Shown: positions 2-59,557 of the stretch, in pieces
Numbering within the stretch: the first letter of the stretch is position 1
How the letters are laid out: the number at the start of each line of letters is the position of its first letter
Source of the DNA: Flavobacteriales bacterium
GTDB lineage: Bacteria > Bacteroidota > Bacteroidia > Flavobacteriales_F > PHOS-HE28
NCBI GenBank assembly: GCA_046329105.1
Contig: JAXLVH010000007.1
Span: 128,515 to 192,514 of the forward strand
Direction of reading: 5' to 3'
DNA: 64,000 bases
Made by a program: the position numbers and the translations under genes
The notes under the pieces: model-generated
What the model was told of the DNA's origin: nothing
What the model saw: only the letters and a program-made list of their open reading frames with translations
The model's database searches: none

Positions 2-1219
2 TGGCCCGGATCGGCCGAAGCACTGGCGCAAGCTGGCGTACTGCCCATTCCGACCAGCAGGACCGAGGCGTGGAAGTACACCCGCGTGGGAAGACTGTTC
101 GATCAGCCGTTTGCGAAGGCGAATGGCCATGCGACGGTGGTGCTTCCGGACCGGCTTCCATTCGCGGCCACGCGCGTGGTCTTCGTGAACGGCCACTTCC
201 GGGCCGACCTCAGCGATGAACTGAAGGTCCAGCGTGGCCTGGTGATCGACAGCTTGATGCGCCACCTCTCGCATGGTCCTGTGCAGGAGAACTACGGCAA
301 GCTGGCCCCCACTGACGATCGCCTCTTCACGGCCATGAACACCGCCGCACCCACGGATGGCATGATCCTGCTGGTGACCCGGGGTGTGAAAGTGGAGAGG
401 CCCATCCACCTCATCCACCTCACCACTGCGGAGCGCCAGCTGGTGCAACCCCGTGACCTGTTCATGCTCCATGATGGTGCGGATGCCGAGGTGATCATCG
501 AACACATCGCGGTGGATGCGCCGGGAGCACTCATCAACAGCGTACGCGAGTGCGTGGTGGGCAAGGGCGCACGACTGACGACACATAAGCTTCAGCGCGA
601 GGGACACCGCACGACAGCGGGAGGTCCTGTGAGCATCAACTTTGACGGGGTGCGCGTGGGCAGCAGGGGGCACTTCAGTTCGAGCACCACGACGCTTGAT
701 GGCGCGTTGGTCCGGAACGATGTGAACGTGGTGCTGGCCGGGCCCGGAGCGCACGCCGAACTGAACGGTGTATACCTGTTGAACGGTACCGCGCATTGCG
801 ACAATCACACGTACATCGGACATGATGTACCGGATTGCACCAGCGACGAGCTCTACAAGGGCATCGTGACGGAGAAGGCCACCGGCGTGTTCAACGGCAA
901 GGTGTACGTGGCGCCCGATGCCCAACGCACCCGGGCGTACCAGAACAACGCCAACATCCTGTTGGGCGACAACGCCAAGGTGTACACCAAGCCCGAGTTG
1001 GAGATCTACGCGGACGATGTGAAGTGCAGCCACGGTTGCACCATCGGCCGCCTGGATGAGAAGGGCCTGTTCTACCTGCGTTCGCGCGGGGTGAGCGAGG
1101 TGGAAGCGCGCCGCATGCTCGCGCACGCGTTCATGACCGATGTGATCGAGCGCATCGCGAACCAGGACTGGCGAGCGCACCTTGCGAACATCATCGATGC
1201 GAAATTGGAAACGCTGTGA
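2..1219 (+). CDS. sufD: Fe-S cluster assembly protein SufD (5' end outside window)
   Basis: The frame stays open back to position 2 and reads ...LPIPTSRTEAWKYT..., the conserved SufD N-terminal motif. The ORF-track start at 86 is an internal Met. The stop overlaps the sufS start (GTGA). Confidence 0.9.
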   Translation, partial: WPGSAEALAQAGVLPIPTSRTEAWKYTRVGRLFDQPFAKANGHATVVLPDRLPFAATRVVFVNGHFRADLSDELKVQRGLVIDSLMRHLSHGPVQENYGKLAPTDDRLFTAMNTAAPTDGMILLVTRGVKVERPIHLIHLTTAERQLVQPRDLFMLHDGADAEVIIEHIAVDAPGALINSVRECVVGKGARLTTHKLQREGHRTTAGGPVSINFDGVRVGSRGHFSSSTTTLDGALVRNDVNVVLAGPGAHAELNGVYLLNGTAHCDNHTYIGHDVPDCTSDELYKGIVTEKATGVFNGKVYVAPDAQRTRAYQNNANILLGDNAKVYTKPELEIYADDVKCSHGCTIGRLDEKGLFYLRSRGVSEVEARRMLAHAFMTDVIERIANQDWRAHLANIIDAKLETL

Positions 1220-2487
1220 GCACCAAGGCCAGCACGGTTGAGAAGAAGGGCTACGACGTTGAGGGGATCCGTGCGCAGTTCCCGATCCTGAGGGAGTTGG
1301 TCCACGGCAAGCCGCTGGTGTACTTCGACAATGCGGCCACCAGCCAGAAGCCGCGCCGCGTGATCAAGGCGGAGAGCGCGTACTACGCCACGATCAACGC
1401 GAACGTGCATCGCGGTGTGCATACCTTGAGCACCAAGGCCACCGAAGCGCAGGAGGCAGCACGGGAGACCATCCGCAAGCACATCCACGCGGAGCACGTG
1501 CACGAGATCATCTTCACGAGTGGCACAACGGCGAGCATCAACCTGGCCGCGGCAAGCCTTGGTCAACTGCTCCTGAAGAAGGGCGACGAGGTGGTGATCA
1601 GCGGGATGGAGCATCACAGCAACATCGTGCCCTGGCAACTGGCATGCGAACGGCACGGAGCGATGCTGAAGGTGATCCCGATCACGGATAACGGGGAGTG
1701 GGATCTTGGCGCGATTCCGGCCCAAGGCCCGAATGACAACGCTCTTCTTTCAGAGAGGACACGCATCCTCGCGATCTCGCACGTCAGCAACACAATGGGC
1801 ACGATCAACCCGGTGAAGAAGCTCATCGCACAGGCGAAGAAGCAGGGGATCACAACCGTGGTGGATGGCGCGCAGGCGATGCCGCACCTTAACATCGATG
1901 TGCAGGACCTCGGTTGCGACCTCTATGCTTTCAGCGGGCACAAGGCCTACGGACCTACCGGGACCGGCGTGTTGTACGGCCGCGAAGAACTGATGGGGTG
2001 CATGCCGCCTTGGCAAGGTGGCGGCGAGATGATCGATACCGTTACGCTGGAGAAGAGCACGTGGGCGAAGTTGCCGTTCAAGTTCGAGGCCGGCACGCCA
2101 CACATCGCCGGCATCATCGGTCTCGGCGAGGCCGTCCGCTGGATGGAGGACTACGACAAGTCAGCGATGGCCGTGCATGAACACCAACTGATCGAGCACG
2201 CGACAAAGGAGCTGCTCGCGATCGAAGGCCTGCGCATCATCGGAACGGCGAAGGAGAAAGCGGGCGTGATCAGCTTCGTCATCGAGGGTGTGCATCATTA
2301 CGACCTCGGCACCCTGCTTGACCAACAAGGTATCGCCGTACGCACGGGCCACCATTGCACGCAGCCGCTGATGGACCGCTTCGGCGTGAGCGGAACGACC
2401 CGGGCCAGCTTCGCGTGCTTCAATACGCTCGCGGAGGTGGATGCCCTGGTAGCCGGGGTGAAGAAAGCGGTGAAGATGTTGCGATGA
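1216..2487 (+). CDS. sufS: cysteine desulfurase SufS (class V aminotransferase)
   Basis: 423 aa with the typical SufS N-terminus (FPIL..LVYFDNAATSQKP) and PLP-fold motifs. The GTG start overlaps the sufD stop. Confidence 0.95.
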   Translation: MSTKASTVEKKGYDVEGIRAQFPILRELVHGKPLVYFDNAATSQKPRRVIKAESAYYATINANVHRGVHTLSTKATEAQEAARETIRKHIHAEHVHEIIFTSGTTASINLAAASLGQLLLKKGDEVVISGMEHHSNIVPWQLACERHGAMLKVIPITDNGEWDLGAIPAQGPNDNALLSERTRILAISHVSNTMGTINPVKKLIAQAKKQGITTVVDGAQAMPHLNIDVQDLGCDLYAFSGHKAYGPTGTGVLYGREELMGCMPPWQGGGEMIDTVTLEKSTWAKLPFKFEAGTPHIAGIIGLGEAVRWMEDYDKSAMAVHEHQLIEHATKELLAIEGLRIIGTAKEKAGVISFVIEGVHHYDLGTLLDQQGIAVRTGHHCTQPLMDRFGVSGTTRASFACFNTLAEVDALVAGVKKAVKMLR

Positions 2488-2536
2488 GATAGGTGAAAGT
2501 GGAAATAGTGGTGAAAAAGTGAAATACAAGTAACCC

Positions 2537-3007
2537 GTGATCATGGAGAACATGACAAACGATCCAGTGAAGCGCGACTGGAACATGAACGGGCTCTATG
2601 ATCTTGGGGAAACGATCTCCGTGGTGGCAGAACAAGCTGGCCGCAAGGTGAACAACTTCAAGGATCTTTGGGTGTGGAAGACCGGCATGGAACTGCTGAA
2701 GCCGGTCTATCAGGTCACACGTAAGCTCCCCAAGGAGGAACTCTATGGATTGACGTCTCAGTTACGTCGGGCTGCTGTATCCGTGCCGAGCAACATTGCC
2801 GAAGGGTGGGGTCGGAACAAGAAGGGATATCTACTGCTTGGCCTGAGCTACTCGCGGGGCTCTCTTCATGAGATCGAGACGCAACTCCTCGCCTGCGTTG
2901 AGCTGGAATTCCTGAAGCATGAGGACATTCAACCCCTGCTGGACAAGATCGCCGGAATAAGCACCGGACTTCTCCGATTCATGAATAACCTGGAGTCGAA
3001 GCGCTGA
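2537..3007 (+). CDS. four-helix bundle protein (TIGR02436, 23S rRNA intervening-sequence protein family)
   Basis: Family-typical motifs FKDLxVW and LTSQLRRAAVSVPSNIAEGWGR. GC is about 52% against ~66% in the flanks. The N-terminal extension is uncertain and the true start may be internal. Confidence 0.8.
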   Translation: MIMENMTNDPVKRDWNMNGLYDLGETISVVAEQAGRKVNNFKDLWVWKTGMELLKPVYQVTRKLPKEELYGLTSQLRRAAVSVPSNIAEGWGRNKKGYLLLGLSYSRGSLHEIETQLLACVELEFLKHEDIQPLLDKIAGISTGLLRFMNNLESKR

Positions 3008-3049
3008 GGCCACTTTATCACCACCCTCACCATTCTCACCACCCTCACC

Positions 3050-3469
3050 GTGTCCCTCGCCCAAACCCAACAAGACCTCGTTGAGGAGTTCGCCCTGTTC
3101 ACGGATTGGCAGGACCGCTACGAACACCTGATCGAATTGGGGAAGGACCTTCCGTTGATCGCACCAGAGAACAAGGTGGATGCGAACCTGGTACGCGGTT
3201 GCCAATCGCGCGTGTGGCTCCATGCGGAACTGAAGAACGGCGTCGTGCATCTCACCGCCGACAGCGATGCCATGATCACCAAAGGCATTGTGGCCCTGCT
3301 CGTTCGCGTGTACAACGACCGTACGCCGCAAGAGATCCTCGGGGCCTCCACGGACTTCATCGACCGGATCGGCCTGCGCGAACACCTGAGTCCCAACCGG
3401 GCGAACGGCCTGAGCGCGATGATCGACCAGATGAAGCGCTACGCACTTGCTTACTCCTCCAACTCATGA
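3050..3469 (+). CDS. sufE: cysteine desulfuration protein SufE
   Basis: 139 aa SufE-fold protein with DWQDRYEHLIELGK and the conserved Cys region (VRGCQSRVWL). Confidence 0.9.
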   Translation: MSLAQTQQDLVEEFALFTDWQDRYEHLIELGKDLPLIAPENKVDANLVRGCQSRVWLHAELKNGVVHLTADSDAMITKGIVALLVRVYNDRTPQEILGASTDFIDRIGLREHLSPNRANGLSAMIDQMKRYALAYSSNS

Positions 3470-3786
3470 CACCCGAGGACAAGCACCAGTTGGAGGAGAG
3501 CATCATCAATGCGCTCAAGTCGGTGTATGATCCGGAGATCCCCGTGGACATCTACGAGCTGGGGCTGATCTACGATGTTGTGGTCCACGACGATGCCAGT
3601 GTGTACATCAAGATGACCCTGACCAGCCCTGCGTGCCCCGTGGCCGGTTCACTGCCCGGTGAGGTGGAACAGAAGGCGGCCGGTGTACAAGGGGTGAAGA
3701 GCGCCAAGGTGGAACTCACCTTCGAGCCGCCTTGGGACCGTACCATGATCAGTGAAGCGGCGCAGTTGGAGCTGGGGTTCATGTGA
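3466..3786 (+). CDS. sufT: SUF-associated DUF59 Fe-S assembly protein (SufT-like)
   Basis: ATG at 3466 overlaps the sufE stop (ATGA). The 106-aa product MTPEDKHQLEESII...TSPACP.. is a typical DUF59/MIP18 protein. The ORF-track entry 3106..3786 is the same frame with a spurious 5' extension. Confidence 0.8.
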   Translation: MTPEDKHQLEESIINALKSVYDPEIPVDIYELGLIYDVVVHDDASVYIKMTLTSPACPVAGSLPGEVEQKAAGVQGVKSAKVELTFEPPWDRTMISEAAQLELGFM

Positions 3787-3856
3787 TACCCTCCCCCGGA
3801 TAGGGGAGGCAGGACCGGGGTGTGGCTACCTACATTTGATGGAAAGTTCCCTGCCT

Positions 3857-4894
3857 ATGCTGACACGCTACATTTCCAGCACCTTCGCGCTCCTGACCGT
3901 GTTGTCGACCTCGGCACAGCTGAGCATCCTCACCCAGTTCGATCCGTCCAACACCGCGGGCACCTGCGGCATCGCGTACAACGCACCGGACGGCGAGATC
4001 ATGGTGATCGGTTGTTCGGCCAGCGTGATAGACCGGTATACCGAGGCCGGGACCTTCCTTTCCTCGGCGAATGTCGTTGGTGAAGGTGCCAATGACGTGG
4101 ACATCGATATGGCGCCGGCGGACCTGGTGATGAACGGCACCTTCGTCGCGCAAGGCCAGTTGTTGTTGGTGAACGGAGAAGTCGGCGTTGCAGAGGTGTA
4201 CGCGATCGACGAGGTGACCAACGAGGTGATCGATACGCTTGTGAGCGGCTTCGGTGTGAGCCACGTGGTGGGCGGCTCGTACCATTCGCAACGGGGCACG
4301 TTCTTCCTGGTGCAGGACATCCAGCCTGGCGGGTTCGACCGCAACCGGATCGCGGAGATCGATGCCACCACGGGCGATACCCTCCGCACGTTCTCCTTGG
4401 ATCCCTATTTCAATGTGAACTATGGCGACCTGGATATTTCCCAGGTCTCAGGCAACCTTTTTCTCGTGAGCAGCGAAGAGAGCGGGATCGCGGAGTTCAC
4501 CCCCGATGGCATGTTCATTGCCGAACATCCGCTGCCTTCCGGAGTGTCCGGCCTGAGCGGTATCGCGCTGGACAATGACCTTGAGGGGGCGTGGGTGTGC
4601 AATACCAGCGGCGTAGTATACAAACTGGGGAATTTTCCCATGGGGACGTTCGGGAACATCGGGACCCCGGACCTTCACGTTCACCCGAATCCAACAAGCG
4701 ATGTGCTATTGGTGACATGTGATCGCGCGAGCACCAACGACGTTATCGCGATCGTCGATGCGGCAGGAAGGACCCTGTTGCGGGAACGCATCACGAACGC
4801 GCTCATGCGGTTGGATGTCTCCCCGCTCCCGGCCGGGCCGTACATCATGCGACTCGAAGCGAGCGGAAAGAGCCGTCGCTTCATGAAGGACTGA
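3857..4894 (+). CDS. T9SS C-terminal-sorting-domain secreted protein, function unknown
   Basis: Signal peptide (MLTRYISSTFALLTVLSTSAQ) and a C-terminal Por-secretion sorting domain (HVHPNPTSDVLLV...YIMRLEASGKSRRF). Start chosen at the internal ATG that begins the signal peptide. Confidence 0.7.
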   Translation: MLTRYISSTFALLTVLSTSAQLSILTQFDPSNTAGTCGIAYNAPDGEIMVIGCSASVIDRYTEAGTFLSSANVVGEGANDVDIDMAPADLVMNGTFVAQGQLLLVNGEVGVAEVYAIDEVTNEVIDTLVSGFGVSHVVGGSYHSQRGTFFLVQDIQPGGFDRNRIAEIDATTGDTLRTFSLDPYFNVNYGDLDISQVSGNLFLVSSEESGIAEFTPDGMFIAEHPLPSGVSGLSGIALDNDLEGAWVCNTSGVVYKLGNFPMGTFGNIGTPDLHVHPNPTSDVLLVTCDRASTNDVIAIVDAAGRTLLRERITNALMRLDVSPLPAGPYIMRLEASGKSRRFMKD

Positions 4895-10874: not shown

Positions 10875-13736
10875 ATGTCCGCCCACCCCGATACCGACAA
10901 GCGCCTCTTCCTGCTCGACGCCTTCGCGCTGATCTACCGCGCCTACTTCAGTTTCATCCGCGCACCGCGCGTGAACAGCAAGGGCTTCAACACCAGTGCG
11001 GCCTTCGGTTTCACCACCACCCTGCTGGACCTGATCAAGCGGGAAAGACCCACCCACCTCGCGGTGGTCTTTGATACCTCTGCGCCCACCGAACGGCACG
11101 AGACCTTGCTGGACTACAAGGCCAACCGCGAGGAAATGCCCGACGACATCCGCAGCAATCTGCCATACATCCGCCGCATCATCGAGGCGCTCAACATCCC
11201 CATCCTCGAGAGCGATGGTTACGAGGCCGACGATGTGATCGGCACCCTGGCCAAGAAGGCCGAACTCGAAGGCTACACCACCTTCATGGTGACACCGGAC
11301 AAGGACTTCGGGCAGCTCGTTACGGACCGGATCATCATGTACAAGCCCGGTCGCGGTGGCGATCCACCGGAGAAACTCGGACCCAAGGAGATCCGTGATC
11401 GCTGGGGCGGGCTCAGCAGCACCGAACAGGTCAAGGATATCCTCGGCCTCATGGGCGATGCGGTGGACAACATACCGGGCATACCAGGTATCGGGGAGAA
11501 AACCGCCATCAAACTGGTGCAGCAGTTCGGCTCACTGGAAGGCGTGATCGACGGGGTGGAGCAACTGAAGGGCAAACAGAAGGAGAACGTGATCCAGTTC
11601 GCGGAACAAGGCCGGATGAGCAAGATGCTGGCCACCATCAACACCGACGCGCCGGTGGATCTCGACCACGATGCGTTGCACCTCGATCCGCCGGACAAGG
11701 ACAAGGTGATGGAGGTCTTCAGTGAGCTGGAGTTCAGGACACTGGCCGCCCGTGTGCTCAGCCCTGCGGATGCAGGTGGCGCCGATGCGGGTCCGAAGAG
11801 CAACGGGGCCACCGGTCGGCGCGGGTCCAACGCGCAGGAACCGTCCGCGCAAGTGGACCTGTTCGGCACCACCATGGATGCGGACGGCAACGTGGCGTTG
11901 ACGGAGTTCTCCACCATCGACACGGTGAAGCACCGCTACCTGCTGGAGGACACCAACGAGAAGATGTACATGCTCGCGGCCCAACTGAAGAAACAGCCGC
12001 GTTTCTGTTTCGATACCGAGACCACGGGAACCGATGAGCGTACGGCGGAGCTGGTGGGATTGGCGTTCAGCTTCAAGGCGAACGAGGGCTACTACGTGCC
12101 CGTGCCGGCCGACCGCCAAGAGGCCCAACGCATCGTGGACATCTTCAAACCCGTGCTGGAGAACGAGGCCATCGGCAAGGTGGCGCAGAACGCCAAGTAC
12201 GACATCCGCGTGCTGGCGCGGTACGGCGTGGAGTTGAAGGGACCCCTCTTCGATACCATGGTGGCGCACTACCTGCTGAAGCCCGACCAGCAGAAGCACG
12301 GCATGGACGACATGGCCGAGGCTTACCTGAACTACCGCCCTGTGAGCATCACCGCACTCATCGGCGAGAAGGGGCGCGGCAAGGTGCAGAAGTCCATGCG
12401 CGAGGTGGACCCGGAACTGGTGAAGGAGTACGCCGCCGAGGATGCCGACATCACCTGGCAGCTCGCCCAACGATTCGGGCCGCTGTTGGAGCAGGATGAA
12501 GTGACCGCGCTCTTCAACGAAGTGGAGATGCCGCTGGTGCATGTGCTCGCCGACATGGAGACCGAAGGCATCCGCATCGACATCCCCGCGCTGAAACAGT
12601 TCAGCGAAGAGTTGGGCACGGACCTGCTCCGCCTCCAGGAGGAGATCCATGCGGCCAGCGGTGTGCCCTTCAACATCGACAGCCCCAAGCAACTGGGCGA
12701 CGTGCTCTTTGAAACGTTGAAGCTCGGTGGCGACAGTGTGAAGAAGACCGCAAAGACGGGCCAGTACCAGACCAGTGAGGACATCCTCCAGGGTTTGAGC
12801 AACGCGCACCCGGTGGTACCGCTCATACTGGACTATCGCAGTCTGCGCAAATTGAAGGGGACCTATGTGGATACGCTTCCGGAAGCCGCTGACCCTGTCA
12901 CGCATCGGGTGCATACAAGCTACCTGCAGACCGTGGCGGCCACCGGGCGCCTGGCCAGCAACGACCCGAACCTCCAGAACATCCCCATCCGCACCGAGAA
13001 AGGCCGCGAGATCCGCAAGGCCTTCGTTCCGCGCGATGCGAACTACCAACTGCTCAGTGCCGACTACTCGCAGATCGAATTGCGGATCATCGCGCACATG
13101 AGTGGCGACAAGAACATGCAGGAAGCCTTCCGGCACGGGCTCGATATCCACGCGGCCACGGCGGCCAAGGTGTTCAACGTGGACATCGCTACGGTCACAC
13201 GGGATCAACGGAGTCGGGCCAAGGCCGTCAACTTCGGTATCGCGTACGGCCAGGGTGCGTTCGGGCTTGCCCAGAATCTGGGCATCCCGCGTGCGGAGGC
13301 CAAACAGATCATCGATGACTACTTCGGGCAGTTCCCCGGCGTACGCAACTACATGGACGAGATGATCGGTTTCTGCCGGACCAACGGATACATCAAGACC
13401 CTCATGGGCCGTCGCAGGTATCTGCCGGACATCACCAGCGGCAACAACACCGTGCGCGCACAGGCCGAGCGCATCGCCATCAACGCACCCATGCAGGGCT
13501 CGGCTGCCGACATCATCAAGGTGGCCATGGTGAACATCCATGGCGACCTGAAGCAACGGGGCATGCGCAGCAGGTTGCTGTTGCAGGTGCATGATGAACT
13601 CGTGTTCGATGCCCACAACGACGAGACCGCTGCGTTGAAGGAGTTGGTACGTGATCGTATGGAAGGCGCCCTGGCGCTGGATGTGCCACTTGTTGTTGAC
13701 ATGGCGGTGGGGAAAAACTGGCTGGAGGCGCACTGA
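10875..13736 (+). CDS. polA: DNA polymerase I
   Basis: 953 aa with 5'-3' exonuclease, 3'-5' exonuclease and polymerase palm motifs (e.g. the DYSQIELR region). Confidence 0.95.
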   Translation: MSAHPDTDKRLFLLDAFALIYRAYFSFIRAPRVNSKGFNTSAAFGFTTTLLDLIKRERPTHLAVVFDTSAPTERHETLLDYKANREEMPDDIRSNLPYIRRIIEALNIPILESDGYEADDVIGTLAKKAELEGYTTFMVTPDKDFGQLVTDRIIMYKPGRGGDPPEKLGPKEIRDRWGGLSSTEQVKDILGLMGDAVDNIPGIPGIGEKTAIKLVQQFGSLEGVIDGVEQLKGKQKENVIQFAEQGRMSKMLATINTDAPVDLDHDALHLDPPDKDKVMEVFSELEFRTLAARVLSPADAGGADAGPKSNGATGRRGSNAQEPSAQVDLFGTTMDADGNVALTEFSTIDTVKHRYLLEDTNEKMYMLAAQLKKQPRFCFDTETTGTDERTAELVGLAFSFKANEGYYVPVPADRQEAQRIVDIFKPVLENEAIGKVAQNAKYDIRVLARYGVELKGPLFDTMVAHYLLKPDQQKHGMDDMAEAYLNYRPVSITALIGEKGRGKVQKSMREVDPELVKEYAAEDADITWQLAQRFGPLLEQDEVTALFNEVEMPLVHVLADMETEGIRIDIPALKQFSEELGTDLLRLQEEIHAASGVPFNIDSPKQLGDVLFETLKLGGDSVKKTAKTGQYQTSEDILQGLSNAHPVVPLILDYRSLRKLKGTYVDTLPEAADPVTHRVHTSYLQTVAATGRLASNDPNLQNIPIRTEKGREIRKAFVPRDANYQLLSADYSQIELRIIAHMSGDKNMQEAFRHGLDIHAATAAKVFNVDIATVTRDQRSRAKAVNFGIAYGQGAFGLAQNLGIPRAEAKQIIDDYFGQFPGVRNYMDEMIGFCRTNGYIKTLMGRRRYLPDITSGNNTVRAQAERIAINAPMQGSAADIIKVAMVNIHGDLKQRGMRSRLLLQVHDELVFDAHNDETAALKELVRDRMEGALALDVPLVVDMAVGKNWLEAH

Positions 13737-13793
13737 TCCGTTGCGGCCGAGCGGGACCTTTACCCCGACCTCTCCAAGCACCCCGGAACACAC

Positions 13794-14678
13794 ATGCGCA
13801 CCAGTTGCTGGAACCTCGCCCCGTTGGCGCTGGTCCTCTTGGCGGCCTGCGGTGGCAATGCGCCCCAGCAGGACACGCTCACCACGGACCCCGTCGCCGA
13901 CAGTACCCAGGCCGAACGCCTGCGGAAGACCAAGAACATCTTCCACAACATCCCGAGCCCCATGGAAACGGCCTCGCTCCTGAAAAAGGCCGGAGCCGGG
14001 TATGATAAGAGCGTGCTCAACGATGTGAAGAACGTGGACAACTACACCAGCGCGAGCAAACAAGCACTCAACCTGGGCATCTACGGGGCCGATCTGAGCT
14101 ACGCCGGCGTTTTCAACAACACCCAGGAGAGCATGCTCTACACGGCTTGTGCGCAGAACCTGGCCAAACGGCTCGATGTGGCCAATGCATTCGGGCAGGA
14201 GACCGTGGACCGTATGGAGAAGAACCGCAACGACCGCGACTCCCTGCTCGACATCATCAGCAGTACCTATTGGGATGTGGACGCTTACCTCAAGGACAAT
14301 GGCCGCGACAACATCAGCGCACTCATGATCGCCGGTGGTTGGGTCGAGGGCCTGTACATGGCCACGCAGGTCTGCAAGACCCACGACACGCCCGAGCTCC
14401 GGCAACGCATCGCCGACCAACAGTACCCATTGGGCGAGTTGATCGAACTGATGGGCACGTACAGCACCGATGATCCCGCGGTGAGCGGTGTGAAGAGCGA
14501 CCTGGACGCACTCGCGGGTCTCTTCGCCGCACTGCCCACGCCGGCCGCCAGCACCGTTACCCAGGAGAACGGCGTTGCCGTGATCGGCGGCGGGGCCGCC
14601 CCGGCCGCCATCACCGATGACCAGTTGAAGGCCATCACCGAGAAGACCGCCACCATCCGCAACGGCTATATCAACTGA
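13794..14678 (+). CDS. hypothetical lipoprotein
   Basis: Lipoprotein signal LLAACGG. No family recognised. Confidence 0.5.
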   Translation: MRTSCWNLAPLALVLLAACGGNAPQQDTLTTDPVADSTQAERLRKTKNIFHNIPSPMETASLLKKAGAGYDKSVLNDVKNVDNYTSASKQALNLGIYGADLSYAGVFNNTQESMLYTACAQNLAKRLDVANAFGQETVDRMEKNRNDRDSLLDIISSTYWDVDAYLKDNGRDNISALMIAGGWVEGLYMATQVCKTHDTPELRQRIADQQYPLGELIELMGTYSTDDPAVSGVKSDLDALAGLFAALPTPAASTVTQENGVAVIGGGAAPAAITDDQLKAITEKTATIRNGYIN

Positions 14679-38444: not shown

Positions 38445-38605
38445 TATTGCAATAGACCTCCGTCCCAATTGCTCAGGGGAATGAAAAAGACTTGTCACGG
38501 TGAGCCTGCCGAACCGGTCCTTGCTTCGCCGTAGCGGCTACGCAAAGGCGCGGTCGATGGGCTCACCGTGACATTCAATAGGAATTACGACGGAGGTCGA
38601 ATGAA
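38445..38605. repeat. palindromic dispersed repeat (R1 family, copy A): TGTCACGGTGAGCC...GGCTCACCGTGACA nested inside outer inverted repeat GACCTCCGTC/GACGGAGGTC
   Basis: Perfect 14-bp inverted repeat. The internal segment GCGCCTTTGCGTAGCCGCTACGGCG is homologous to the tails of copies B and D. Confidence 0.7.
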
Positions 38606-41398: not shown

Positions 41399-41724
41399 CG
41401 GGCCGTCAACGTGGCCTGACCACCGCATGCCAAGCTCGCGAAGATCAACGTAACTTCGGCTTTCATGGGTTCCCTGTTCCCTGTTCCCTGTTCCCTGTTC
41501 CCTGTTCCGGTTCCAAGCAGCAGATCATCTACGCTCATTCGATAAAGACCTGCCAGCTTGATGGCCCGTTCCGCGCTCAGTTTCACATGCGCGCTTTCCA
41601 ACTCGCTATATGCGGACTGCCCGATGGCCAGCACCTCGGCCAGATCCTCCTGGCTCAGGCCATGTGCCGAACGCAACTCCAGCAAGCGAAGAGCGATGCG
41701 CTTCTGTTCGCGACGATGCTCCAT
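41395..41724 (-). CDS. XRE-family helix-turn-helix protein (putative antitoxin/regulator) with repeat-encoded C-terminal tail
   Basis: HTH LSQEDLAEVLAIGQSAYSELES. The C-terminus GTGNREQGTGNREQGTGNREP is encoded by the heptamer tract. The start is uncertain (Met at 41724 or 41763). Confidence 0.55.
   Translation of the reverse strand: MEHRREQKRIALRLLELRSAHGLSQEDLAEVLAIGQSAYSELESAHVKLSAERAIKLAGLYRMSVDDLLLGTGTGNREQGTGNREPMKAEVTLIFASLACGGQATLTAR
41470..41504. repeat. heptanucleotide tandem repeat (TTCCCTG)x5
   Basis: Five perfect 7-nt units, read directly. They lie inside the 3' coding tail of the HTH gene, ~70 nt upstream of the toxin start. Confidence 0.9.
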
Positions 41725-48184: not shown

Positions 48185-48330
48185 GTTGCAGCGCTTCGGC
48201 AGGCTCAGCGTGACAGCTCATCGGGAGTGTTCAAGAAAAGTGCTCTTGGACACTCATGTCCCCACTGTCACGCTGAGCCCGCCGACTGCGCCTATGCGTA
48301 GCCGCTCCGGCGAAGTGAGGAGCGCCATAC
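48185..48330. repeat. palindromic dispersed repeat (R1 family, copy B): GGCTCAGCGTGACAG-N48-CTGTCACGCTGAGCC + tail GCCGACTGCGCCTATGCGTAGCCGCTCCGGCGAAGTGAGGAGCGCC
   Basis: Perfect 15-bp inverted repeat. Roughly 85% identical to copy D. Confidence 0.8.
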
Positions 48331-49691: not shown

Positions 49692-50018
49692 ATGATCAAG
49701 GTGAGCGAGACCGCCAAAAGCGAGGTCACCAAATTGCTGGGCATGGAAGGACGTGGGCCTCAGCACTTCGTACGCGTGGGCGTGAAGGGCGGCGGCTGTT
49801 CCGGCCTGATGTACGACCTGACCTTCGACGACCAGATGAAGGACGGCGACAAGGTCTTTGAGGACAACGGCGTGAAGGTGGTGGTGGACAAGAAGAGCCT
49901 GCTCTACCTGCTGGGCACCACGCTCGACTTCAGCGGTGGTCTCAATGGCAAGGGCTTCCAGTTCGTGAACCCCAACGCCAGCCGGACCTGCGGGTGTGGG
50001 GAGAGTTTTTCGATATGA
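49692..50018 (+). CDS. sufA: HesB/IscA-family Fe-S cluster insertion protein
   Basis: 108 aa with the C-terminal CGCGESF motif. Confidence 0.9.
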   Translation: MIKVSETAKSEVTKLLGMEGRGPQHFVRVGVKGGGCSGLMYDLTFDDQMKDGDKVFEDNGVKVVVDKKSLLYLLGTTLDFSGGLNGKGFQFVNPNASRTCGCGESFSI

Positions 50019-50032
50019 ATCGATACAGTATT

Positions 50033-50139
50033 GAGAATGGTGAAAATGGAGAGAAAGTGATATGCCCTGGACGATGATCAACACCTGTAACCTGTAGTCC
50101 CACTTTCTCACCGCCTTCACCACCCTCACCGTTCTCACC
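50033..50139. repeat. cargo-less copy of the GGTGA-rich / CACC-rich complementary bracket motifs
   Basis: Left arm GAGAATGGTGAAAATGGAGAGAAAGTGA and right arm CCACTTTCTCACCGCCTTCACCACCCTCACCGTTCTCACC are separated by 38 bp. Same architecture as the brackets around 2537..3007. Confidence 0.6.
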
Positions 50140-50148
50140 CGCATTCCT

Positions 50149-51597
50149 ATGGCACAGGACACCGACGATATCCTCCGTGAGGTCACCGAAAAGGAGTACG
50201 CCTACGGTTTTGTCACGAACATCGAGAGCGAGAAGGCCGAGAAGGGCCTGAACGAGGACATCGTACGCTTCATCAGCAAGAAGAAGGAAGAGCCGGAGTG
50301 GATGCTGGAGTGGCGCCTCGAGGCCTTCCGGCTCTGGCAGAAAATGGAAGAGCCCACCTGGGCGCATGTGAACTATCCGAAGATCGATTACCAGGACGCC
50401 TATTACTACAGCGCGCCCAAAAAGAAACCGCAACTCAACAGCTTGGACGAGGCCGACCCCGAGCTGGTGAAGACCTTCGAGAAGCTGGGCATCTCCTTGG
50501 AGGAGCAGAAGCGCCTTGCCGGTGTGGCCGTGGATGTGGTGTTCGACAGCGTGAGTGTGAAGACCACTTTCCAGAAGACATTGAAGGAAAAAGGGATCAT
50601 CTTCTGCTCGTTCAGCGAGGCGGTACGGGAACATCCTGATCTGGTAAAGAAGTACATCGGCAGCGTGGTGCCACGCACGGACAACTACTTCGCCGCGCTC
50701 AACAGCGCCGTGTTCAGCGATGGCAGCTTCTGCTACATCCCGCCAGGAGTACGCTGTCCCATGGAGTTGAGCACCTACTTCCGCATCAACGAGGCCATGA
50801 CCGGCCAGTTCGAGCGCACCCTGCTGATCGCCGACGAGGGCGCTTACGTGAGCTACCTGGAAGGATGCACCGCCCCCATCCGCGATGAGCACCAGTTGCA
50901 CGCCGCCGTGGTGGAACTGGTCGCGCTGAAAGACGCGGAGATCAAGTACAGCACCGTCCAGAACTGGTACCCCGGCGACAAGGACGGCAAGGGCGGCATC
51001 TACAATTTCGTCACCAAGCGTGGCCTTTGCCTCGGCGATCGCAGCAAGATCAGCTGGACGCAGGTTGAGACCGGCAGCGCGATCACTTGGAAGTACCCGA
51101 GTTGCGTGCTCAAAGGCGACCACAGTGCGGGCGAGTTCTATAGCGTGGCCGTGACCAACAACCGCCAGCAGGCCGACACGGGCACCAAGATGACCCACAT
51201 CGGCAAGGGCACCAAGAGCACCATCGTGAGCAAGGGCATCAGCGCGGGCTTTTCCAACAACAGCTACCGTGGACTGGTGAAGATCGGTCGCGGCGCGAAA
51301 GGCGCACGGAACTTCAGCCAGTGCGATTCCCTCCTGCTCGGCGACCGCTGCGGCGCACACACCTTCCCGTACATCGAGAGCGAGAACCCCAACGCCATGG
51401 TGGAGCACGAGGCCACCACCAGCAAGATCGGTGAGGACCAGATCTTCTACCTCAACCAGCGCGGCATCGAGACCGAAAAAGCGGTATCACTCATCGTGAA
51501 CGGCTACTGCAAGGAGGTGCTGAACCAACTGCCGATGGAGTTCGCCGTGGAGGCGCAGAAGTTGTTGGCGGTGAGCTTGGAGGGGAGCGTGGGGTGA
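50149..51597 (+). CDS. sufB: Fe-S cluster assembly protein SufB
   Basis: 482 aa, conserved throughout as SufB. Confidence 0.95.
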
Positions 51598-51610
51598 TCG
51601 GCCAACGTTC

Positions 51611-52054
51611 GTGACCGTGTTCCGGCCGACGGCTGTCGCCATTTCATCCTATGCGGCCATCGGCCCCCAATGGTCATCTGCCTGGAACTGCTCGAGGACC
51701 GAGCGCCGCAACTTTGTCAAGGCCTTGCACTTGGCTGTCTCCGCCGAATTGGCACTGGGAGGCTCTATGTCGAATACAGTGGGTAGTCGAACTTGAGCTT
51801 ACCGGTGAGGAAGTATATCACGTTGATGATGTTTTGGATATTCAGGTAGCCCCTTGCCCTTGCTCTGGCGAGTTGGACCTTTGAATTGATCCCTTCGCGG
51901 ATCCCGTTGGAGAAGTGGTACTTGGTGTGGTTGGTGATGCCAGCCCAATACTGGGCAACGGTCTTCGCGAACTTGACAAAAGGGCCAATGGCTGCATCGG
52001 CGGCCAAGTCACACCAGAAGGCCAGGAAGCTCCTGTTTTAACTAAATGGGTCAC
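51611..52054 (-). mobile_element. ISL3-family insertion-sequence remnant
   Basis: It contains the transposase C-terminal fragment listed next. No intact transposase or clear terminal inverted repeats were found. Confidence 0.55.
51765..52007 (-). pseudogene. ISL3-family transposase, C-terminal ~80-aa fragment
   Basis: ...ITNHTKYHFSNGIREGINSKVQLARARARGYLNIQNIINVIYF matches the conserved ISL3 transposase C-terminus (NxxxEGxNxKIKxxKRxAxGYRN). The N-terminus is absent. Confidence 0.6.
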
Positions 52055-55274: not shown

Positions 55275-55410
55275 TCAGGGCAGGCTCGCTCAGCGTGACA
55301 GTTCATAGGGAGTAATAGAACAGTGCTCGTGGACACCCATGACCCCACTGTCACGCTGAGCCGGCCGACTGCGCCTATGCGTAGCCGCTCCGGCGATGCG
55401 AGGAGCGCTA
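55275..55410. repeat. palindromic dispersed repeat (R1 family, copy D)
   Basis: GGCTCGCTCAGCGTGACAG-N45-CTGTCACGCTGAGCC + GGCCGACTGCGCCTATGCGTAGCCGCTCCGGCGATGCGAGGAGCGC. Confidence 0.8.
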
Positions 55411-59361: not shown

Positions 59362-59557
59362 GGAACATCCTCACCACAGAGGCACAGAGGACACAGAGAA
59401 AGACCACATGAAGCGGCAAGGAGCGGATCAGCGAGTGCGAGTTGCATTTCTCGGTGTCTCCGTGCATCTGTGGTGAACACGAATTGAACAATGGCCCCAG
59501 CAGCCCAAGCGCATTCCTCCGTGCCCTCTGTGCCTCTGTGGTGAAAAGCATTCCAGC

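Follow-up and report, generated by a model that had tools for sequence, protein, structure and literature searches.

A four-helix-bundle gene between complementary repeat arms at the sufS-sufE junction of a Flavobacteriales genome: a probable intervening-sequence-type cassette in an mRNA operon

Intervening sequences (IVSs) in 23S rRNA have been known for more than 30 years, and their nature, their mobility and the function of the S23p protein that they encode are still disputed (PMC4990558). A gene of the same protein family, PF05635/TIGR02436, is present in a stretch of 64,000 nt from a Flavobacteriales bacterium (GCA_046329105.1, contig JAXLVH010000007.1, positions 128,515 to 192,514; hereafter the window), where it occupies the gap between sufS and sufE (2488-3049) and is bracketed by two arms that are complementary to each other. 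What is such a gene doing inside an operon that encodes proteins? The best explanation, and one that we consider probable, is that it is an IVS-type cassette residing in a protein-coding mRNA operon. No rRNA match was found in the window or at the related loci L001-L007. The locus is made up as follows.

Window start side, plus strand: sufD, the suf gene upstream of sufS, truncated by the window start.
1216..2487, plus strand: sufS (cysteine desulfurase), the upstream host gene (Pfam Aminotran_5, E 9e-147).
2488..2526, plus strand: left arm, purine-rich degenerate 9-nt repeats GGTGAAAGT GGAAATAGT GGTGAAAAAGTG (inverted repeat and pattern match).
ATG 2543..TGA 3007, plus strand: PF05635/TIGR02436 four-helix-bundle gene, 154 aa (hidden Markov model matches).
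3010..3049, plus strand: right arm, pyrimidine-rich 9-nt tandem repeats, TCACCACCC x3.6 (inverted repeat, tandem array and pattern match).
3050..3469, plus strand: sufE, the downstream host gene, with a GTG start (Pfam SufE, E 2e-48).
3466-3786, plus strand: DUF59/SufT-type gene (sufT), after sufE.

In agreement with the original prediction, a single open reading frame (ORF) and nothing else lies in the 562 nt from the sufS stop to the sufE start. The inverted-repeat search reports the arms as 2482-2521 and 3011-3050, 40 nt each and 73% complementary, so that the predicted imperfect reverse complementarity of the flanks is borne out. In this register the sufS TGA (2485-2487) falls within the left arm, and at L049, L070 and L085 the last sufS codon and the stop are contained in the first arm repeat, AGGTGAGAA; at the other end, the right arm as delimited above (3010..3049) stops one base short of the sufE start codon. 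The left arm is a degenerate, purine-rich complement of the 9-nt array that forms the right arm. The family assignment of the 154-aa protein is secure by its matches to PF05635 (E 7e-31; 107 bits, cut-off 33.8) and to TIGR02436, 'four helix bundle protein' (101.7 bits, cut-off 24). The protein aligns over 110 residues to XCC0516 (PDB 2GSC; E 2.6e-20), including the family signature Q..R...S...NIAEG (QLRRAAVSVPSNIAEG), and Q73, R76, S80, N84-G88 and E110 are invariant among 10 diverse family members. A four-helix-bundle fold is inferred for it solely from sequence homology to 2GSC; a single-sequence AlphaFold2 model had a mean predicted local distance difference test score of 37.5 and was unusable. 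The start codon at 2543 is kept in orthologs as CCATGGAGAAC, and an N-terminal extension of ~38 aa is specific to the lineage at the sufS-sufE junction. No PADLOC model matched the protein.

This layout very probably belongs to the architecture class of the S23p-bearing IVSs. The 23S IVSs with an S23p ORF in Leptospira, Coxiella burnetii, Brucella and Xanthomonas encode the same protein family and, like the cassette, hold their ORF inside stem-forming terminal inverted repeats, with tandem repeats and an AG-rich stretch just upstream. They are also sporadic among relatives, as the cassette is, and have ORF-less versions at the same sites in the rRNA inserts of the candidate phyla radiation (CPR), where the literature places PF05635 genes in both 16S and 23S inserts beside ORF-less ones. 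In the 23S IVS of C. burnetii, the S23p ATG is immediately preceded by three GACAGAT heptamers and an AG-rich stretch, and RNase III cleaves in vitro within the 28-bp stem (PMC4990558). The cassette matches this plan in a different host, the junction of a polycistronic mRNA rather than helix 25 or 45 of 23S rRNA. Its stem is 73% complementary, in contrast to the near-perfect 28 bp of Coxiella, and its ORF is under strong purifying selection, whereas that of Coxiella is decaying. The proposal that a stem-flanked, IVS-like insert resides in an mRNA operon was largely correct.

The arms probably form a stem in the sense transcript, to judge by predicted folds. In the minimum-energy fold of the 601-nt region they pair on both strands. 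The sense duplex in the window comprises 15 G-C, 13 A-U and 2 G-U pairs (-36.9 kcal/mol), and arms-only hairpins in nine orthologs reach -37 to -46 kcal/mol in the sense orientation. It had been suggested that the arm mismatches are mostly A versus G, such that the arms would pair through G-U wobbles in antisense RNA. The antisense arms-only hairpin of the window, at -47.0 kcal/mol, is indeed about 10 kcal/mol more stable than the sense one, but in eight orthologs this advantage is -0.6 to +5 kcal/mol. The 11 mismatches in the 40-nt register include six purine transitions, about half, and wobble-compatible mismatches over 35 cassettes divide into 42 for sense and 44 for antisense. With the stability edge not conserved in relatives and no strand preference in the mismatches, antisense G-U pairing was rejected; nor was a Bacteroidetes-type -7 motif (TAnnTTTG) found on either strand at the cassette. 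The arms do have a polarity relative to the ORF, the upstream arm being purine-rich in 30 of 36 cassettes (66% purine in the upstream flank, 37% in the downstream one), and this points to a role at the level of the transcript or of translation. Base-pair covariation in the orthologous arms is uninformative because the arms are too conserved, and pairing as a conserved property is visible only at the level of whole arms, in that the TCACC, GAGAAAG and L007 arm types are each self-complementary.

The sequence of the arms is unusual for the window. The pattern TCACCN4TCACCN4TCACC, with at most two mismatches, occurs seven times in the 64 kb against 0.24 expected, and five of the seven matches fall in two suf junctions: three in the cassette arms (that of the left arm at 2492-2514, minus strand) and two in a hairpin between sufA and sufB. 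The complementarity of the cassette's flanks is reached by only 4% of 202 control genes. Composition-preserving shuffles of both flanks, for their part, already give strong duplexes (z only -2.5 to -3). The left arm was also considered as a three-frame array of stop codons; its 4.33 stops per 50 nt, compared with 3.85 after shuffling (p = 0.28), reflect composition only, and this idea was dropped. The GGTGA/TCACC core (2492-2521, 3018-3049) coincides with part of the extended Shine-Dalgarno pairing with the 16S 3' tail (GAUCACCUCC). Flavobacteriia rarely use Shine-Dalgarno pairing.

Whether the cassette is an insert can be answered from its relatives. A genome scan was combined with a metagenome scan using SufE (80 loci), and the state of the junction was counted where sufS-sufE could be resolved. 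At 28 loci only 5-8 nt separate the sufS stop from the sufE start; the cassette can be regarded as a discrete insert because so many close relatives have just this spacer, and it is almost certainly an optional one. About 13 loci carry it: the window, L001-L006, L047 (the locus of the window's own source), L049, L063, L070, L085 and L114. The genome scan found the order sufS-gene-sufE in six Flavobacteriales metagenome-assembled genomes (L001-L006; gene 88-93% identical). At L007, in a metagenome-assembled genome of the Weeksellaceae, the gene is 49% and SufS 67% identical, and the flanks are different in sequence yet again complementary. A 65%-identical gene at L083, L111 and L121 is enclosed by arms of GAGAAAGNG repeats and their complement (CTTTCTC). 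At L083 (2077-2185) and L111 (3953-4068) the left arm of this type has grown to 109-116 nt, with 13-14 copies of GAGAAAGT, beside a right arm of 32 nt; arm repeat number is unstable, as has been reported for the Coxiella heptamers.

About 25 further loci hold unrelated ORFs of 120-310 aa at sufS-sufE (lipoprotein-like with a lipobox, membrane or tetratricopeptide-repeat proteins), all without arms; nearly all of these overlap the sufS stop with their start codon (ATGA) and finish ~9 nt before sufE. They are found at the following loci.

L048, L050-L054, L058, L059, L068, L072, L074, L082, L086, L087: armless ORF at sufS-sufE.
L092-L094, L099, L100, L102-L107, L119: armless ORF at sufS-sufE, continued.

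In a neighbour-joining tree of SufS and SufE the three junction states are interleaved, and the nearest relative of the window has an empty site. This implies that the interval is an optional slot of which the cassette is one of several occupants; as far as these loci show, sufS-sufE is a hypervariable junction that accommodates small accessory genes.

How old is the cassette, and how did it come to its present distribution? The lower GC content that had been reported is real, but the deficit of 14 points is not: the gene (54.0%) and the gap (52.7%) lie 6-9 points below sufS (61.6%) and sufE (59.8%), and a deficit of 10-14 points is seen only at third codon positions (68% in the gene, 79-82% in the neighbours). 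Low GC as a mark of recent arrival was rejected, since the offset is equal in all seven orthologous loci and dS is ~0.9. The arms are conserved across 12 orthologous loci. Among seven orthologs their mean pairwise identity is 0.89 (left) and 0.83 (right), whereas third codon positions in the gene and in sufE reach 0.63-0.70. The gene itself has a ratio of nonsynonymous to synonymous substitution (dN/dS) of 0.057 at a dS of 0.90, with sufE at 0.12 and 0.74. By these substitution patterns, arms and protein are both under purifying selection. Together with the shared GC offset and the high dS, this conservation indicates that the cassette, where present, is an old and functional resident rather than a decaying remnant.

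The proposed mobility of the element stands in part. It is patchy on the tree, and the cassettes of L001 and L085 are 99.4% identical where sufS, sufE, sufD and sufT are 86, 79, 82 and 80% identical, respectively. The near-identity tract runs from ~260 nt inside sufS to ~110 nt inside sufE, and its entry into both flanking genes is the footprint of homologous recombination or co-conversion via the host genes. On this comparison, the tract shows that the cassette has moved horizontally between genomes, without revealing a mechanism of transposition. No target-site duplication was seen when filled and empty sites (TGA + 8 nt + ATG) were compared, and no transposition event among the compared loci. 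Self-mobility beyond recombination is conceivable, although we lean somewhat against it.

The association of gene and arms is not peculiar to suf. At 42 PF05635 loci, drawn from Bacteroidota, Selenomonadales, Clostridia, Synergistota, Omnitrophota, Patescibacteria and Gammaproteobacteria, the local complementarity between the 90 nt upstream and the 90 nt downstream of the gene had a median score of 14.5, compared with 7.0 for 202 other genes of these same loci, taken from a crude ORF caller (Mann-Whitney p = 2.7e-14). Across the family the arms are tandem repeats of 7-9 nt with varied sequences (AGGGAAG, AGTGATC, AGATATT, GGGGCGA), AGTGATC-type units being used by several other cassettes. The genes have co-directional neighbours at distances of tens of nt, and their host junctions include CheB-CheA, the small and large subunits of methylmalonyl-CoA mutase, MurT-GatD, ThyA-DHFR, dGTPase-DnaG and, identified by reading of the translations only, HsdS-HsdR. 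None of the 17 other PF05635 loci tested lies in a 23S rRNA gene. A second PF05635 gene, 26-36% identical and with TGATTGC/GCAATCA heptamer arms, is located between sufB and sufC in seven relatives.

L003, L069, L070, L099, L101, L103, L111: PF05635 cassette at sufB-sufC.

These sequences suggest that PF05635 genes are typically accompanied by repeat-built inverted arms at operon junctions. Earlier records place PF05635 genes in cas loci, including the interval from cmr3 to cmr2 (PMC3936711), and in the arrangement gmk-four-helix-bundle gene-nadD in Flavobacterium columnare (PMC5524665); the searchable literature, coverage of which is incomplete, yielded no account of PF05635 cassettes that are flanked by a stem and reside in mRNA operons. 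TAACTGA heptamers are known as direct repeats before start codons in Beggiatoaceae, Cyanobacteria and Bacteroidetes (MacGregor 2015, PMC4679880). These too are short tandem arrays ending a few nt from a start codon, and a similar form is seen in the right arms of Chitinophagales PF05635 cassettes (CTAACAACTAACAACTAATAACTAA) and in the arrays at L109; in contrast, that report treats direct repeats only, and no mention of inverted partners or of four-helix-bundle genes was found in it. In diversity-generating retroelements (DGRs), the accessory protein Avd is likewise matched by PF05635 (PMC10053308). Avd belongs to a homologous four-helix-bundle fold family, but the cassette protein matches NF033474 weakly (E 0.0016, 18.7 bits against a cut-off of 80), and its immediate neighbours are sufS and sufE rather than a reverse transcriptase or template and variable repeats, the rest of the window not having been screened for reverse transcriptase. 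The differences between the cassette's arms do not fit the adenine-specific DGR pattern.

Arms of this kind also occur without a gene. A second copy of the arm pair exists in the window, in the suf region at 49692-52007.

50032..50139, plus strand: gene-less copy of the arm pair between a sufA-like gene and sufB; left arm 50032-50059, loop 41 nt, right arm 50101-50139.

Its arms are homologous to those of the cassette, and it folds at -37.1 (plus strand) and -50.1 (minus strand) kcal/mol (z ~-2.6). The arm pair thus has two copies in the 64 kb, both at suf junctions, and no further sites were found in 730 kb of related loci. The TCACC hairpin at sufA-sufB is shared by L069 and L070, the sufS-sufE site of L069 being empty, and other relatives have at sufA-sufB either hairpins with other 8-9-nt repeats (CACAGAG, CGCAAAG, CGTTGCG) or a spacer of 23 nt. 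By eye, the ends of the ORF are recognisable in the loop of the gene-less TCACC hairpin, but local alignment against shuffled loops is non-significant (p = 0.02-0.6), and descent of this hairpin from a cassette by internal deletion is at most a possibility. We note that the suf operon is split in the window's genome, with sufA-sufB at 49.7-51.6 kb and sufD-sufS-four-helix-bundle gene-sufE-sufT at the window start; the break is at sufB-sufC, and a C-terminal fragment of an ISL3 transposase (51765-52007, minus strand) follows sufB.

Similar gene-less hairpins occupy sufD-sufS and sufE-sufT in relatives. One such hairpin, built from a different repeat, CACAGAGGN, lies at window positions 59362-59557, at the junction of an HlyD-type membrane-fusion gene and an AcrB-type pump gene; its arms (59371-59401 and 59514-59544) are 90% complementary, with an additional copy of the right arm at 59449-59478, and the same repeat type occupies sufD-sufS or sufA-sufB in relatives. 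Repeat-armed inverted pairs were found at many sites in the 730 kb of related sequence, where those scoring at least 13 with a loop of more than 300 nt all enclose a PF05635 gene, with the sole exception of L109. There, at 12889-13847, a carbon-nitrogen hydrolase gene is preceded by arrays of TAACNCG-type heptamers and followed by their complement and an extra forward array. The gene-less CACAGAGG hairpins at sufD-sufS (L004 2577-2690, L005 2575-2675, L003 2593-2723) have an ATGAAG after the left arm that opens an ORF of ~20 codons through the right arm (e.g. MKNNALAFLCALCASVVNRIP), the TGA of which overlaps the sufS ATG; this could be a coupling mini-ORF or chance. Correia elements (or NEMIS) of Neisseria and repetitive extragenic palindromes (REP, and the BIME mosaics built from them) of enterobacteria are small inverted repeats between co-transcribed genes that form stems in mRNA; RNase III cleaves the stems of Correia elements, and those of REP elements have a stabilising effect on the mRNA upstream. 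The TCACC and CACAGAGG hairpins that lack a gene resemble these systems, but Correia and REP elements are gene-less with a fixed consensus, in contrast to the varied 7-9-nt tandem arms described here, the large loops of which carry one gene family. The Rfam database gave no matches at gathering thresholds in the window and 24 loci, nor at E up to 1 in the two hairpin regions. Other repeats in the window include a perfect GTTCCCT x5.7 heptamer array (41469-41508) that adjoins a small minus-strand ORF and has no complementary partner within 1 kb. Hairpins at 38493-38573, 48196-48285 and 55283-55366 have a common core, GCTCAGCGTGACAG / CTGTCACGCTGAGC, and constitute another dispersed inverted-repeat family, unrelated in sequence to the TCACC arms.

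We propose that a promoterless PF05635/TIGR02436 gene, which together with its enclosing repeat-built arms of ~40 nt exactly fills the interval from the sufS stop to the sufE start, would be transcribed within the suf mRNA. Co-transcription is expected because no promoter-like or terminator-like site was found on the plus strand at 1100-4000, and no -7 motif at the cassette. The arms would pair as an imperfect duplex of ~30 bp, closing the gene into a loop and bringing the sufS stop beside the sufE start. Such a duplex may be a processing or insulating structure, most likely a substrate of RNase III by analogy with the rRNA IVSs; that RNase III cleaves this particular stem we put forward tentatively. 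A stem of this kind would let a selfish gene occupy an essential transcript cheaply. Spread among related genomes proceeds by homologous recombination through the flanking suf genes. Autonomous movement by homing or transposition, which would leave arm-only hairpins as its derivatives, is a possible addition. By analogy only, homing-endonuclease genes, inteins and integron cassettes are likewise promoterless selfish ORFs in host transcription units, with one site per lineage, and flanking host sequence is co-converted upon their exchange, as in L001 and L085; unlike these, the cassette has no nuclease or recombinase domain, no splicing and no attC-type single site, and its arms flank both sides of the ORF.

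Several other explanations deserve consideration. The hairpin could be the primary element and the gene a passenger: hairpins resembling REP sequences or miniature inverted-repeat transposable elements would colonise junctions, their arms belonging to the site and not to the gene, and a four-helix-bundle gene would have landed in, or would target, the loop. TCACC arms without a gene at sufA-sufB in the window, L069 and L070 (with sufS-sufE empty in L069) fit this idea, as do dozens of gene-less hairpins with 7-9-nt repeats at three suf junctions of relatives and at the membrane-fusion-pump junction of the window, and a gene-less TCACC loop without significant homology to the ORF ends need not be a deletion derivative. 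We nevertheless regard it as unlikely, in view of the near-exclusive presence of PF05635 genes in the large loops, the absence of arms from the ~25 other ORFs at sufS-sufE, the recurrence of such arms around PF05635 genes both in rRNA IVSs and in phyla only distantly related to Flavobacteriales, and the fact that arm type follows gene lineage (TCACC in the 88-93% group, GAGAAAG in the 65% group). That the arms are instead DNA-level terminal inverted repeats of a non-autonomous transposable element, with a recombinase acting in trans and RNA pairing incidental, seems to us quite unlikely. The lack of strand bias in the mismatches (42 versus 44) would follow if the constraint acted on double-stranded DNA or on symmetric sites, and two copies of the arm pair in 64 kb and the variable repeat number (a left arm of 109-116 nt at L083 and L111) would also suit such an element; but filled and empty sites give no target-site duplication, no transposase adjoins the cassette (the ISL3 fragment is positionally unrelated), the arms are polar with respect to the ORF, and each gene lineage is confined to one junction.

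A gene domesticated by the suf operon, for example as an RNA- or protein-binding accessory factor, with arms that serve as a cis-regulatory stem tuning sufE translation or mRNA stability, would not be selfish at all. The lineage-specific N-terminal extension keeps such a role, or strict site specificity, in play, as the sub-lineage that has it is found only at sufS-sufE and reaches the Weeksellaceae (four-helix-bundle protein 49%, SufS 67%); the right arm finishes at the base before the sufE start codon, and purifying selection on the gene is stronger than that on sufE (dN/dS 0.057 against 0.12, at a dS of ~0.9). Domestication is nonetheless distinctly improbable, since about half of the closest relatives lack the gene and have in its place a tight spacer of 8 nt or an unrelated ORF, the same family resides in unrelated operons and in rRNA, and the family has no known Fe-S function and no PADLOC match. 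Lastly, the complementarity could be a low-complexity by-product of a purine-rich and a pyrimidine-rich leader, or could reflect G-U pairing in an antisense RNA, as the strong duplexes of shuffled flanks and the 10 kcal/mol antisense advantage in the window might suggest. We give this very little credence: conservation of the arms far exceeds that of synonymous sites, the family-wide excess of complementarity is large (p = 2.7e-14), the antisense edge is not kept in relatives and strand bias is absent over 35 cassettes, and no minus-strand promoter motif was found.

The IVS-type cassette thus remains the reading that we favour, and the following observations weigh against it. The stem is much less perfect than that of Coxiella, with 11 of 40 positions mismatched. 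Folding of the arms was as expected but their covariation was not, as substitutions in the orthologous arms are few and rarely compensatory and several break pairs; primary sequence, and not pairing alone, may therefore be conserved, and a constraint purely on sense RNA would not predict the split of 42 to 44 mismatches. Co-transcription, formation of the stem and its cleavage are predictions. Similarity to the 154-aa protein was the basis on which the 46 comparison loci were picked, and a crude ORF caller supplied the control genes. An automated table of hairpin positions relative to genes was set aside as too noisy, greedy ORF calling having picked spurious antisense ORFs in high-GC DNA. The L001/L085 recombination tract reaches into sufS and sufE, and armless ORFs are equally patchy at the junction, so that patchiness is no proof of self-mobility. 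Gene-less hairpins of like build are numerous at other operon junctions of these genomes, and with such abundance the hairpin may be the primary element.

A wider generalisation is speculative, and we think it unlikely to hold: PF05635 genes with repeat-built inverted arms may be one phylum-spanning class of mobile cassettes that colonises any highly transcribed RNA. If so, the arms rather than the rRNA context would define the class, with an rRNA helix and an operon junction both serving as hosts, and the cassettes would be tolerated since the stem lets the host transcript be processed or read across. Gene-less hairpins, and perhaps the TAACTGA-type arrays of cyanobacteria and Beggiatoaceae, would be non-autonomous relatives, and the protein, Avd-like and pentameric, would have the arms as its target, whether to process RNA or to copy the cassette to new sites. 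The recurrent gene-plus-stem unit itself offers an explanation for four-helix-bundle genes wedged in cas, restriction-modification and housekeeping operons, for heptamer arrays before start codons, and for the abundance of standalone Avd homologs. With the gene-plus-stem unit found at suf, che, methylmalonyl-CoA mutase, murT/gatD, thyA/folA and hsdS/hsdR junctions, and with empty and filled alleles in close relatives, what has been an oddity of rRNA becomes a general element, open to comparative genomics and to simple RNA experiments.

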